Shown here one piece after another: positions 11,239 through 39,789 of a DNA stretch of 64,000 bases. The notes below the pieces were generated by a model, which was not told the DNA's origin, made no database searches, and saw only the letters and a list, made by a program, of their open reading frames with translations. Within the stretch, counting starts at the first letter, position 1. Each line of letters opens with the position of its first letter. The DNA is taken from assembly GCA_015057315.1 (NCBI GenBank), contig SVER01000014.1, positions 10,388-74,387 of the forward strand, read 5' to 3'. The stretch comes from Pseudobutyrivibrio ruminis (GTDB lineage: Bacteria; Bacillota; Clostridia; Lachnospirales; Lachnospiraceae). The translations under genes were made by a program, and so were the position numbers.

Positions 11239-11270
11239 AAGCAGTCTAGTTTATCTAGGCTGCTTTTTTC
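11239..11270 (+). terminator. Intrinsic terminator
   Basis: aagcagtctag-tttat-ctaggctgctt followed by a T-tract. Confidence 0.75.
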
Positions 11271-11274
11271 GATA

Positions 11275-12009
11275 TTCACGGACATACATATTATAGTATC
11301 TGTGGATTTAGCCGCCTCCCGCCATGCCCCACTCCCAAGGCCAGCATAAAAATACTAGAGATGTGTCCGCCTTATGCATTAGACAGTGCCACTTGCTCAT
11401 TGCATCATTGGAGAAGAATTGCTGATTTTCTTAATGCCACAAGCGAGCATACATCACGTGTCCTTTCACGGCTTTGACTATTCGAAGCAACTGTATGTAT
11501 CTCACAGACACTTGGTAGGTTACATAATAGCAGGAGTGGCAATATTAGTATTAATTGCATTCATATTCCATTCGCTAAGAAAAATTAAAAGCAGTTTTTG
11601 GATGTTTTTGTACCGGCTTCAAGCTCAGTCCTTTTCGCTATCAGCCTTGGGCTGCCGTCCGTGGCAGCCCATACCAAAACATTCAAAAACTGCTTTAAGA
11701 TTTTTCTAAGCTCATTCCAAAATCATGCAATTAATACTAATATTGCCACTCCTGCTATTGCTATATGTTGAGTGTGTCTGTGAGATACATACAGTTGCGA
11801 CAGAATTGTCAAACCTTGAAAGAACACGTGTAATAAAGAATGCGAGTTGTGGCATTTAGAAAATCAGTAATTCTTCGACGGTGCAATGAGCAAGTGGCAC
11901 TGTCTAATGCATAAGGCGGACACAGTAAGATAAGCTATGCTGGCCTTGGGAGTGGGGCGTGGCGGGAGGCGGCTAAATTCACAGCCTGAAATTTGTGTAT
12001 GTCAGTGAA
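11275..12009 (+). repeat. 735-bp imperfect fold-back palindrome
   Basis: Successive stems (e.g. 11301-11348 with 11936-11983, 48 bp; further stems of 45, 25 and 35 bp) separated by non-complementary bubbles. Central loop about 11624-11671 contains gggctgcc/ggcagccc. Confidence 0.95.
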
Positions 12010-12142
12010 GGGGATACGAGTTTTTGTTAAAAAATGAGACAAAAATTAACAAAGGGGTAAATTGTAACACTTAATACACAATATAATGTTAAAATTCAGA
12101 CAATGCATGGAGTACGTGCTGTATATTGCGATGGAGGATGCT

Positions 12143-14167
12143 ATGGCAAAACAAGTAAAAGAGAAAAAGGAAAAAGTAAGGAAGATTAAGGATAAGCTTC
12201 TATTACTAATCATTCCAGCGGTTATTGTTATGATAATTGTGCTGGTAGTGATATCTTCTATGCTGTCTAAAAATAGTATGCAGGAGATGGCACAGGCTAA
12301 CCTGGAAAGTTCTATTGGAAATCAGGCAGATAACATTAGTTCGTGGCTAAGTGAAAACTTAGAGAATTTTGCCGCAGTCAAAAAGGGAATTGAAGGTATG
12401 CAGCCTGATGACGAGGTTTTGGTACAGTACCTGACTTCTTATGTGGGTTCTAATACTAATTCTCCTAATGGTGTATATGTGGCTTCTAATACCGGGGCAG
12501 TTTTCTGTGGAAATGGCGCAGATATTTCTATATCTAATCCAACAGAGCAGCAATGGTTTAAGGAAGGCCTGTCACGTGTAAATATGGCCTATGGCAGACC
12601 ATATAAAAATGCTGATGGTCAGTATGTAATTTCTGCATCGGGAATTATTAAAAGCAATGGTGATGATATAAGGGTTGCAGCAGCAGATGTTACCTTGGAT
12701 CAGATTACTATCATCGTTAATTCTGGTGTAAAGATGAAAAATGCCAGCTCATTTTTGGTGGATACAGATGATATGATGATTCTTGCCCACAGAGATGATA
12801 GCCTGGTATCAACCACAATTAGTGATAGCAGTAATGATCCTATTATCAAGGGTGCATATAAGAAGATTTCAGCAGGTGATTATACAACTGAGGAAATCAG
12901 CGGATATACAGTAGCGTTTAGTGAAATATCAGGAACAAACTGGGTGCTTGTTTCTTATATTGCTGATAGCATTATTCTTGCGGATATACAAAAGCTTGGC
13001 CTTATTCTTTTTGGTGTTGGTGCCATTGCAGTTGTATTGATTACTATTATGATTAGCGTAATCATAGGACGTGTTGTAAGACCAATCGCATCTATTACCC
13101 AGAATATTTCAGCAATGAGCGATGGTGATTTTACTATCGAGGTTGCTAAGGAATCTAACGACGAAATCGGTGTTATGGGCGAACAGGTTGGAAGGTTCGT
13201 TGTGCTTATGCGTAAGATGCTTTCAAGCATCAGTGATGAATCTGATAAGCTAAAGCTGGAATCTGATAACAGCGATAGAGTAAGTAAGGATATGTTTGAT
13301 GCATCTCAGTCACAGGAAAATGCAATGGTTAATCTGAAGAATACAGTTGATGAGCTAGCCCTTGCAGTTAATGAGATTGCAGAAAATGCGACTACTCTTG
13401 CTATGGTTGTTTCTGATACAAGAGAGAATTCTAACCAGGCTAATGAAAGCATGAAGGAAACTGTTGAAATCAGTAAGCAGGGACGTGCTGATATGGAGCA
13501 GCTTTCAATTGCCATGGAAGGAATCAAAAACAGCAACGATGCCTTGGTTGATTCTATTAACCAGGTTGGTAAGGCATCTGAAGAGATTACAAAGATTGTT
13601 GGACTTATTGCAGAGATTGCCGATGAGACAAATCTTCTTTCACTTAATGCATCTATTGAGGCAGCCCGTGCTGGTGAGGCAGGAAAGGGCTTTGCGGTAG
13701 TTGCTACAGAGATTGGTAAGCTGGCTCAGACATCAGCGGATAGTGCCGATAATATTGCAAGTCTTATCAATGATGTAGGCAAGGCCATTGATTCTGTTGT
13801 TGCCCAGGCGGAGAACAGCGCAAGAAATATTGAAGCTAACAGCGAATTAATTGGTACGGCAGTTGAAACATTTGATAAGATTTATAAGAATATTGAAAAG
13901 TCAAACGAGCTTCTTGATTTGATGATACAGGATGTACAGAAGGTTGATGAGGTATCTACTAACGTAGCTGCTATTTCTGAGGAGCAGGCGGCTAGTGCAG
14001 ATGAAATCCTTGAGACCTCTAAGCACATGGTAGAACAGGCTCAGTCCATTACCGCAAGCAGTCAGGATGTGGCGGACAACTCTCACGAGCTGGCAAATAC
14101 ATCCCAGACTCTTACAGATTATGTACAGCAGTTTAAGATTGTGAAGGAGGACGATTATGAGAGCTAA
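12143..14167 (+). CDS. Methyl-accepting chemotaxis protein (Cache-like sensor, HAMP, MA domain)
   Basis: Two TMs flanking an extracellular domain; [37 protein letters not shown]. Start moved to 12143 (ggagg RBS). Confidence 0.95.
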
Positions 14168-38467: not shown

Positions 38468-38630
38468 TAGATTAGCATATGGAATGATAGAGTAAAAGGT
38501 TATCGCTGAGCCCTTCGAGCAGCGTCTACACTTAGTGAGCGCCTGCGCGAACTTAGTGTGGCTACGCTGTGTAATGAGCGCAAGCGTGGCGAAGGATAAC
38601 TTTTTACTCTAGCATGAAATATGCGGACTA
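38468..38630 (+). repeat. TAGATTAG...CGGACTA hairpin element with 87-bp core
   Basis: Arms agagtaaaaggttatc/gataactttttactct; core 38507-38593 matches 39671-39757 at 79 of 87 positions. Confidence 0.85.
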
Positions 38631-38640
38631 GAGGTAATCT

Positions 38641-39576
38641 ATGAAACTTAGAGATTTGACAGGAACTAAATATAGTGTAATCCAGGGGGGAATGGCGAAC
38701 ATAGCTACAGGTGAATTTGCCGCAGCGTGTTCTAATGCAGGCGCCCTTGGCCTTGTTGCAAGCGGCGGTATGGATGCCGAAAGCTTGAGAGAACAGATAA
38801 GAATATGTAAGAGCAAGACTGATAAGCCTTTTGGCGTGAATCTGATGCTTATGAATCCTGATGTAGATAACATAGCTAAGATGCTAGTGGAAGAAAAGGT
38901 TCAGTTTATTACAACAGGAGCTGGTAACCCAGGCAAGTATATGAAGGCCTGGAAAGAAATGGGGGCAAAGGTATTCCCTGTAGTTGCTTCTGTAGCGCTT
39001 GCCAAGATTATGGTTAGAGCCGGCGCTGATGCAGTTATTGCAGAGGGCGGCGAATCAGGTGGTCACGTAGGAGATATGACTACCATGACATTGCTTCCAC
39101 AGGTAGTTGCAGCCGTGGATGTACCAGTTATTGCAGCAGGTGGTATTGCCAGTGGTGAGCAGATGGCAGCTGCCATGATGCTTGGTGCTTGTGGTGTTCA
39201 GGTAGGTACATGCCTTCTTGTTTCAGAGGAATGTCCAATACACGAAAACTATAAGCAGACACTGATTAAGGCAAAGGATAATGCCACTACAGTAACAGGC
39301 CGCTCCCAGGGCGCACCAGTTCGTATCATCAAAAACGAAATGGCCCGCGAGTACCTGAAACTGGAGGCAGAGGGTGCTGATAGAGAAAAGCTAGAGCACA
39401 TCACACTTGGCGGCCTTCGCCGTGCTGTATGTGATGGTGACATGATCCGCGGCTCAGTAATGTCCGGCCAAGTATGCGGCCAGCTCACCGCCATCCGCCC
39501 CGTCGTAGAAATACTAGACGAAATGGTCACCGGCGCCAAGAACGCGTTGTCTAAAGCTGCATCGATTGAACTGTAA
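38641..39576 (+). CDS. fabK: Enoyl-ACP reductase II
   Basis: IQGGMA, TDKPFGVNL, EGGESGGH, IAAGGI, GVQVGT. Confidence 0.93.
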   Translation: MKLRDLTGTKYSVIQGGMANIATGEFAAACSNAGALGLVASGGMDAESLREQIRICKSKTDKPFGVNLMLMNPDVDNIAKMLVEEKVQFITTGAGNPGKYMKAWKEMGAKVFPVVASVALAKIMVRAGADAVIAEGGESGGHVGDMTTMTLLPQVVAAVDVPVIAAGGIASGEQMAAAMMLGACGVQVGTCLLVSEECPIHENYKQTLIKAKDNATTVTGRSQGAPVRIIKNEMAREYLKLEAEGADREKLEHITLGGLRRAVCDGDMIRGSVMSGQVCGQLTAIRPVVEILDEMVTGAKNALSKAASIEL

Positions 39577-39638
39577 TGAAATTTCAATGTTAAGCCAAAG
39601 TGTGTTTTTTATCTACGGCTAATTGTAGTGTTTAAATA

Positions 39639-39789
39639 GCAGCATAATGCATAGACAATATATTTTACTATGAGCCCTTCGAGTAACGTCTACACTTAGT
39701 GAGCGCATGCGCGAACTTAGTGTGGCTACGTTACGTAATGAGCGAAAGCGAGGCGAATAGTAAAATATATAGGCTATGTATTAGGCTGC
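39639..39789 (+). repeat. Hairpin element with the same 87-bp core
   Basis: Arms gcagc..atgcatag..atattttacta / tagtaaaatat..ctatgtat..gctgc around core 39671-39757. Confidence 0.85.

Follow-up and report, generated by a model that had tools for sequence, protein, structure and literature searches.

Which process has placed a large fold-back, devoid of any credible open reading frame (ORF), between a transcription terminator and the gene for a methyl-accepting chemotaxis protein (MCP) in Pseudobutyrivibrio ruminis? The window analyzed here is a stretch of 64,000 nucleotides from this bacterium (contig SVER01000014.1), in which nearly all of the DNA at positions 11275-12009 is self-complementary. 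An earlier note, prepared from the letters of the window, read this fold-back either as a long structured noncoding RNA or as a giant mobile palindrome that resembles REPINs and was built by nested insertion, and matched it to no named family. Comparison with other genomes of the genus indicates that the fold-back is probably a resident copy of a non-autonomous fold-back transposable element of Pseudobutyrivibrio, a rod of approximately 750 bp that resembles miniature inverted-repeat transposable elements (MITEs) and carries a TwoAYGGAY motif at its apex. In the following, G000 denotes the genome of the window, and the other G-numbers (G018, G020, G024 and so on) denote congeneric Pseudobutyrivibrio genomes.

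Mobility of the rod

The whole rod moves as a DNA unit that has conserved termini and duplicates A/T-rich 8-mers, often the T-tracts of terminators. At the orthologous locus of G018, the two flanks are 97-99% identical to those of the window and directly abut (...CTAGGCTGCTTTTTT|GTTAAAAAATG); in the window, an insert of 751 bp is located in the terminator T-tract, with TTTTT on either side. Short spacers are also present at this locus in the more distant G020, G010, G047, G001, G019 and G048, and the other comparisons of empty with occupied sites agree (C77 and C13b against G020; C11 and C44 against G018, G010 and G020). The cleanest case is a rod of G020 (G020:C197) that is bounded by an exact 8-bp duplication, TGGTTTTT, and has the termini GTTAC...GTAAC; the orthologous empty site (G000:C57, around 76712) contains only one TGGTTTTT. 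Over its full length, shell included, this rod is 96-98% identical to the C13b rod of G000, which occupies a different locus. The flanks of G000 and G020 are just ~82-90% identical and the C13b locus is empty in G020; the match between the two rods is direct evidence that the unit has recently moved as a whole.

The 8-bp duplication at the window copy, GCTTTTTT/GAGTTTTT, is deduced from this exact case and agrees at six of the eight positions. The junction pairs at other copies are AAATAATT/AAATAAAT, CTATTTTT/ATATTTTT and TTTTTATT/TTTTCATT, and seven of eight positions agree at C13b, C77 and L066. The targets are A/T-rich 8-mers, many of which are T-runs that follow hairpins. Copies from G000, G010, G019, G020 and G024 share their termini, 5'-GTTACTATTCACGG... 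and (T)TGTYACTATTCACGGACAT at both ends. The termini of the window copy are degenerate, in particular the right one when compared with the family consensus ...CCGTGAATAGTAAC, and this copy is also present at the orthologous locus of G024, where the assembly breaks within the rod (C56/C90). The window copy is probably an old insertion that is immobile by now and exerts no obvious effect on its neighbors; compared with the empty site of G018, the MCP promoter region (12026-12085) is unaffected by the insertion. The palindrome is indeed mobile, as one branch of the earlier note had it, considering its multiple copies, its presence or absence at orthologous loci, the terminal inverted repeats and the target duplications. 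The fold-back described there is present, whereas the true unit is the 751-bp insert at 11270-12020.

Rods of the same family occupy different loci in six or more species whose genomes were assembled independently, G024 contains a complete orthologous copy (G024:C19) with 16 differences only, the junctions with the empty sites are precise, and the bubbles in the rod are asymmetric and conserved. As far as these data reach, an assembly artefact is excluded, and the probability that the rod is a fold-back chimera appears to be practically nil, even though short-read assemblies do break inside rods, as the contig ends of G024 demonstrate. Many contigs of G024 (C2, C14, C15, C21, C33, C41, C50, C52, C56, C77, C85, C88 and C90) end within rods, so that these elements systematically interrupt assemblies in this genus. 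For annotation, this means that the rods should be masked as repeats.

The TwoAYGGAY apex, copy number and distribution

The apex of the rod does belong to a named family. In a cmscan search, it matches the Rfam model RF01731 (TwoAYGGAY) with 65.2 bits (E = 4.7e-10; gathering score, 43 bits) over model positions 1-168 of 168, on the minus strand only. Loop 1 of the window copy, ACGGAC, fits the AYGGAY pattern and loop 2, AAGGAC, has an A at the Y position; both fit A(N)GGA. In the sister copies, loop 2 is AUGGAC or ACGGAC, with GGA invariant, and both GGA loops are kept in all copies. Much weaker Rfam matches, to MIR841, FasX and snoRNAs, are far under the respective cut-offs and were rejected as artefacts of a long hairpin.

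The rod and TwoAYGGAY have in common two hairpins with GGA loops, a long closing stem (P1), occurrence in Clostridia, multiple copies and no fixed gene partner. They differ in that the closing stem of the rod extends over ~290 bp, with bubbles at fixed places, and the entire structure is mobile and bounded by terminal repeats and target duplications; in the original description of TwoAYGGAY (Weinberg et al. 2010, PMC2864571), the closing stem is said to be 'often very large (e.g., 24 base pairs)'.

Further copies, for which the earlier note had suggested a search, are readily found. A whole-genome search of G000 with RF01731 yields 13 matches, all with 55-70 bits, each at the tip of a rod, and BLAST in the same genome detects seven copies of ~750 bp along with shorter relatives of 300-640 nt and some fragments. 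All copies in G000 are intergenic and occur in either orientation; among copies flanked by genes in tandem, the Rfam strand is the sense strand five times and the antisense strand five times. Within the genus, 23 of 24 congeneric species contain RF01731, with 1-23 copies each; outside the genus, the motif was detected in 18 of 120 genera from the same family and in none of the 16 other sampled families of the order. An exact 26-mer of the element matches only Pseudobutyrivibrio assemblies from the rumen. No similar DNA was found in phage or plasmid collections, and a phage or plasmid origin was accordingly rejected. The Pseudobutyrivibrio rods of 630-785 nt form the upper tail of the distribution of rod lengths: among 28 elements from other genera, the rods mostly span 215-360 nt, with outliers of 470, 564 and 702 nt. 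G000 and the family at large also contain relatives of ~300 nt, which are equivalent to the innermost part of the long rods.

Outside the window, four rods of different subfamilies (313, 643 and 643 nt, and a tip-deleted one of 513 nt) form a local cluster within 31 kb of G000 (C60:8990-39570).

Structure of the rod and complementarity of its arms

The fold-back is real and lies where the earlier note had placed it. A repeat search of 11275-12009 resolves it into six nested pairs of inverted repeats that are separated by bubbles, with arms that are complementary at 96% over 49 nt, 93% over 54 nt, 93% over 30 nt, 100% over 25 nt, 82% over 39 nt and 74% over 85 nt. RNAfold gives -463.9 kcal/mol for the plus strand (shuffle mean -196, z = -45) and -445.5 kcal/mol for the minus strand (shuffle mean -192, z = -30). 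The longest frame in the core, ~100 aa, is open in only 5 of 12 copies with no common start and has no match to a Pfam family above the cut-off, in agreement with the earlier statement that the structure has no credible ORF.

Alignment of the long copies together with their flanks shows that full copies share, besides the termini, two further short helical boxes (GTGGATTTAGC and ATGTGCCxGC), and that the extents of core-only BLAST matches do not mark the ends of the element. The outer shell comprises ~130 bp on each side and includes three conserved boxes. The helices between the boxes are wholly different between copies and complementary within each; the bubbles, in an alignment of eight copies, keep their positions and not their sequences. 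A covariation profile built from 12 full copies of four species, with slid partners as controls, yields a consensus structure of 264 pairs in which 96.2% of the cells are paired, compared to 35-40% with the slid partners. Compensatory change among homologs is evident from this profile, with double-sided change in 83 pairs against 22-36 in the controls; nearly all of it is located in the outer ~150 columns, and columns 151-225 are 99-100% identical. In the one clean pair of orthologs, C13b of G000 and G024:C19, differences are found at 16 of the 762 positions of the element (2.1%) compared to ~3.7% in the flanks, and one of the differences is a switch of a paired C-G to A-T. A comparison of orthologs by the contig ends of G024 was discarded because these ends match several paralogous cores.

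The wobble mismatches that were counted by hand in the earlier note, approximately six G.T to one A.C on the plus strand, are present in the window copy, where we find seven to one. The conclusion drawn from them, namely that the plus strand folds as RNA or single-stranded DNA (ssDNA), fails in the family at large. Among the 13 copies of G000, the ratio is 57 on the strand equivalent to plus to 40, and the raw counts for 26 rods, drawn from 10 species, are 155 and 126 in the same order. When only isolated mismatches within helices are considered and inherited ones are counted once, 40 G.U fall on the Rfam strand and 51 on the other (p = 0.29), next to 95 transversion mismatches in the same de-duplicated set of 26 rods, so that transversions match transitions in frequency; tallied by the direction of the flanking genes, the counts for G000 are 34 and 32. 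On all these counts (57:40, 126:155, 40:51 and 34:32), strand-biased wobble is rejected as a trait of the family. The mismatches resemble fresh, unfiltered mutations in either arm, the compensation is strand-symmetric, and folding of one particular strand is not supported; because the bias vanishes across the family, there is no sign of selection on the fold of one strand. Quasipalindrome template switching and arm-to-arm conversion produce such strand-symmetric compensation without selection on RNA. Because compensation is symmetric and the mismatches look like raw mutations, covariation in the long P1 stems of such motifs cannot count as evidence of RNA structure.

History of the core

The orthologous copies of G010 and G020 have collinear flanks and shells and an inverted core. 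Over 30 nt, their identity is 47% in the same orientation and 97% when one core is inverted; along the whole copies, it amounts to 93.5% in the (inverted) core, 87-89% in the shells and 83-86% in the flanks. When related copies are scored at the sites of disagreement between the two arms of a rod, they sort into two states of core orientation, {L062, L063} versus {L061, L064, L065, L066}, with an ortholog control of 35:3 for the same state. The cores and shells also differ in their degrees of divergence: identity is 99% in the core and 63% in the shell for C11 and C44, 94% and 82% for paralogues of G019, and 92% and 60% between G000 and G019. The cores themselves are mosaic, with 385 of 1225 informative site pairs incompatible by the four-gamete test and shared blocks visible in the alignment. 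Judging from these alignments, the rod is modular, and its core has been exchanged between copies and occurs in both orientations relative to the shell. The simplest reading of this history appears to be ectopic gene conversion among copies. Because a palindromic donor can pair either way and conversion stops where homology ends, such a process would explain at once why the core is homogeneous, why its boundary is sharp and why flips occur.

Search for a mobilizing enzyme

The rod has no coding capacity, shares terminal inverted repeats among its copies, generates a duplication of fixed length, 8 bp, and is multi-copy with insertion polymorphism, all of which are features of MITEs. The feature that it lacks is an autonomous insertion sequence (IS) with matching ends, at least among the 34 genomes of the genus that were searched. 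A pair of terminal motifs at C44:84099/85714 is due to chance, being located within genes for a glycosyltransferase and an acyltransferase. IS66-family transposases are encoded in 23 of the 34 genomes, and the IS66 family classically makes 8-bp duplications; the ends of these elements are unrelated to those of the rods, and IS66 was rejected as the mobilizer.

The rod at G020:C197 is interrupted by an IS110-family element (L095 895-2483, ~4694-6282) of 1,589 bp that encodes a 402-aa DEDD transposase (PF01548, 1.1e-31; PF02371, 3.2e-17). The element is inserted in the second AYGGAY loop of the rod, with the junction ...GCGAAA|IS|AAACGGAC... and a 3-nt AAA overlap. The TwoAYGGAY apex apparently can be a landing site for an RNA-guided IS, as REP sequences are for other IS110 members. 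Neither a role of IS110 as the mobilizer nor an origin of the rod as part of IS110 was retained: this is a single insertion in one apex, related IS110 copies elsewhere are not in rods, and the rod has both terminal repeats and duplications, which are absent from IS110. No homologue of this transposase was found in G000. The IS110 element includes a noncoding leader of 248 nt that could encode a bridge RNA. A stretch of 117 nt in G000 (C59:7381-7497) is 81% identical to this leader and could represent either an isolated remnant or a portion of a diverged IS.

No Y1 (RAYT) transposase is detectable in G000 either, a genome that is 94.5% complete and contains no match to PF01797, and the rod of 750 bp is not a REP doublet; the comparison with REPINs in the earlier note does not hold.

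Proposed mechanism and alternative explanations

Taken as a mobile element of the MITE type, the rod would be mobilized by a DDE-type transposase that acts in trans and binds the terminal and subterminal boxes. The complementarity of the arms would be held mainly by strand-symmetric DNA processes, that is, quasipalindrome template switching or arm-to-arm conversion, possibly with added selection for a foldable element rather than selection on one RNA strand. The core would be homogenized by ectopic gene conversion, with flips arising when a donor pairs in either orientation.

Several observations weigh against this reading. No autonomous element with the rod termini was found in G000 or in the 34 genomes of the genus, and pairs of terminal motifs occur only ~730 bp apart, the sole exception being the G020:C197 rod with its IS110 insertion; with the IS66 ends unrelated to those of the rod, the transposase step is purely inferential. 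At several junctions, one end carries 2-11 additional bases, which makes them ragged, and older copies have imperfect duplications. Conservation is stronger in the interior than at the termini, opposite to what typical MITEs show, and in G010 and G020 the core evolves 2-2.5 times slower than the flanks, which could mean a function at the level of the host rather than conversion. The bubbles keep their positions without their sequences, and simple homogenization of the arms should have erased them. Finally, the apex fits a strand-specific RNA model, with GGA loops conserved across phyla.

Under the RNA half of the earlier proposal, the rods would be a gene family: either the hairpin of ~750 nt or its core of ~480 nt would be transcribed, for instance as a stable decoy that binds CsrA, the copies would be paralogues under selection in the host, and mobility would be incidental. 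Sequestration of CsrA by TwoAYGGAY RNAs in Clostridia was proposed by Gardner & Eldai (2015, PMC4333381), and a csrA gene is present in G000. Such a role would also be consistent with an Rfam match above the gathering score on one strand only, with the retention of both GGA loops in all copies, with the conserved positions of bubbles that lack conserved sequence, with the slow core (relative to the flanks in G010 and G020, and at 2.1% against ~3.7% in C13b and G024:C19) and with the plus strand of the window copy, which folds better by 18 kcal/mol. Nevertheless, we regard this explanation as unlikely. After de-duplication, no part of the stem shows a G.U strand bias and the mismatches are like raw mutations; the copies show no preferred orientation with respect to genes (five sense to five antisense) and lie downstream of terminators, and a promoter scan gave no signal above chance. 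In addition, the conservation of the core is decoupled from the age of the shell, the mosaic cores fit conversion rather than uniform selection, and transposition is evident from the clean duplications and empty sites. The apex itself may nonetheless function as RNA. Very improbable, it seems, is an element in the style of REPIN/RAYT, IS200/IS605 or integron attC, which would fold as a hairpin when its DNA is single-stranded in the course of replication and would be mobilized by a tyrosine or HUH enzyme that cuts and rejoins it at the foot of the stem. A single hairpin does join both ends of the rod, the structure of the shell is kept without its sequence, the two isomers of the core recall flip/flop in hairpin-resolution systems, and the window copy has its 7:1 bias of G.T. 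The lack of any detected Y1 or RAYT transposase in G000, the 8-bp duplications with terminal inverted repeats, which are hallmarks of DDE and not of HUH transposition, and the absence of a family-wide strand bias all argue against it.

Construction by nested insertion, also suggested in the earlier note, is supported only as far as the modular structure goes: the histories of core and shell are decoupled, and the core is flipped at their boundary. A 'Russian-doll' origin, in which a mobile hairpin of ~482 nt homed in either orientation into the apex of an older hairpin, the present shell, and the composite spread later, is nonetheless rather unlikely. It would account for a boundary that is sharp and falls on the same nucleotide in two different groups of shells, for cores that are 97-99% identical in unrelated shells and inverted at the boundary between orthologs, and for the ~300-nt relatives that equal the innermost part of the long rods; and the IS110 element in an AYGGAY loop demonstrates that a hairpin apex can receive an insertion. 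Against such an origin, no core-less shell was found in G000, where the motif pairs on C4, C23 and C56 are due to chance or coding, and none of ~250 nt in the 34 genomes of the genus, a weak test that required exact 8-mers; a shell-less core was not found. Two copies that lack the tip (C60:26428 and G020:C280) were rejected as pre-insertion states, being asymmetric microhomology deletions that keep one arm of the stem; as read from these deletions, loss of the tip is decay of the palindrome. Moreover, the cores are internally mosaic and exchange piecemeal, which points to gene conversion, and neither a duplication nor a terminal repeat is found at the core boundary. Quite unlikely, too, is that the TwoAYGGAY core forms a self-contained unit whose movement or switching does not depend on its carrier: it would either home into the apices of other hairpins, as a nested 'Russian-doll' transposon with hairpin tips as its targets, or flip without a recombinase inside the shell, as a switch that selects the apex strand to be exposed or expressed, GGA loops (a CsrA decoy) or their UCC complement. 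If true, the orphan motif would gain a mechanism and a new kind of modular mobile RNA gene would be at hand.

Comparison with known systems

The rod is an unusually long, modular variant of the MITE-like fold-back that carries TwoAYGGAY. Bacterial MITEs that fold into hairpins include Correia of Neisseria, the enterobacterial ERIC and the pneumococcal RUP. Like these, the rods are gene-less, multi-copy, intergenic and polymorphic, have terminal repeats and a target duplication and would form long hairpins if transcribed; unlike them, they are 5-7 times longer, complementary throughout and better conserved in the interior, have no known parent IS, and flip and exchange their cores. With REPINs, the rod has in common that it is a dispersed palindromic repeat: REPINs are ~100 bp long, consist of doublets of a 20-25-nt REP, make no target duplications and depend on a Y1 RAYT, whereas the rod has 750 bp and 8-bp duplications. 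The large palindromes of parvovirus terminal repeats, sex chromosomes and E. coli (quasipalindromes) also have arms that stay complementary despite drift, an interior in both orientations and slippage deletions; the difference is that here a dispersed family of bacterial repeats is involved, with exchange of cores between copies. GGA motifs in hairpin loops are shared with CsrB/RsmZ-type small RNAs, and the binding of CsrA by TwoAYGGAY is a published hypothesis that applies to a genome with csrA; the rod, however, has only two GGA loops per copy and a random orientation. Finally, rod-like folding over ~0.7-1 kb in a bacterium of the gut or rumen brings to mind Obelisks and viroid-like RNAs. 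These are RNA-only replicons, Obelisks with an Oblin ORF; the rod is chromosomal DNA that is present in assemblies with insertion junctions and has no conserved ORF, and an identity with such RNAs was rejected.

In the searchable literature, TwoAYGGAY, an orphan since 2010, is treated as an RNA, and no link to mobile DNA was found. By word counts of a 2026 preprint (10.64898/2026.09.22.753630), TwoAYGGAY occurs 52 times (including 'TwoAYGGAY element'), 'transposase' once, and 'MITE' and 'inverted repeat' not at all, and by the same measure CsrA is not discussed there. The rods offer a natural system for the study of how bacteria tolerate, maintain and erode very long palindromes. They also offer testable handles on the role of TwoAYGGAY, namely the strand that is expressed, the binding of CsrA and a transposase that recognizes the boxes.

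The window locus

The setting given in the earlier note, between a terminator and the MCP gene, and the GC-rich hairpin in the loop are both recovered at the locus (Table 1).

Table 1. Features of the rod and its surroundings in the window
Feature	Positions	Strand	Evidence and remarks
Intrinsic terminator of upstream 82-aa ORF, with T-tract	11239..11269 (hairpin 11239-11265 + T-run)	+	Terminator scan; insertion target
Left copy of target-site duplication, GCTTTTTT	11262-11269	+	Comparison with empty site of G018
Whole insert, 751 bp	11270..12020	none	Absent from empty site of G018; element proper ~11270-12017 if duplication is 8 bp
Left outer shell (long terminal inverted repeat)	11270..11402	none	Alignment of eight copies; covariation profile
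Conserved helical boxes of left shell	ATATTCACGGACATAC 11272-11287; GTGGATTTAGC 11302-11312; GATGTGTCCGCC 11360-11371		Copy-specific helices and unpaired bubbles between boxes
Conserved core module, ~482 nt, CATCATTGGAG...GACGGTG	11403..11883	none	90-99% identity among copies and species
Apex, TwoAYGGAY (RF01731)	11564..11721	-	cmscan
Apex hairpin 2	11615-11646		Loop includes AAGGAC
Apex hairpin 1	11649-11670		Loop ACGGAC on minus strand; GC-rich gggctgcc/ggcagccc hairpin
Right outer shell, complementary to left shell	11884..12017	none	Repeat search and alignment
Boxes of right shell	GGCGGACACA 11915-11924; GCTAAATTCAC 11972-11982; GTATGTCAGTGAA 11997-12009		
Right copy of target-site duplication, GAGTTTTT	12018..12025	+	TTTTT at 12021-12025 matches left copy; first three bases degenerate
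MCP gene, outside the element	12086..14167	+	Pfam MCPsignal 6.4e-33, HAMP 1.7e-08

The alleles at this locus do not follow the relationships of the genomes. The empty allele of G018 is 97-99% identical to the flanks of G000, compared to 93-96% for the occupied allele of G024, and nonetheless G024 is the closer relative of G000 genome-wide and at six other loci. Judging from the flanks, this discord could reflect either an exchange of the locus with population polymorphism or a precise excision of the rod between the T-runs.

Elsewhere in the window, a stretch at 38468-39789 has no RF01731 match in the whole-genome search and may represent a different family of hairpin repeats. Within the rod itself, a self-complementary octamer, ACACGTGT, was noticed by eye in both arms where the core is invariant (11473-11480 and 11824-11831); a dimeric DNA-binding protein could bind there.

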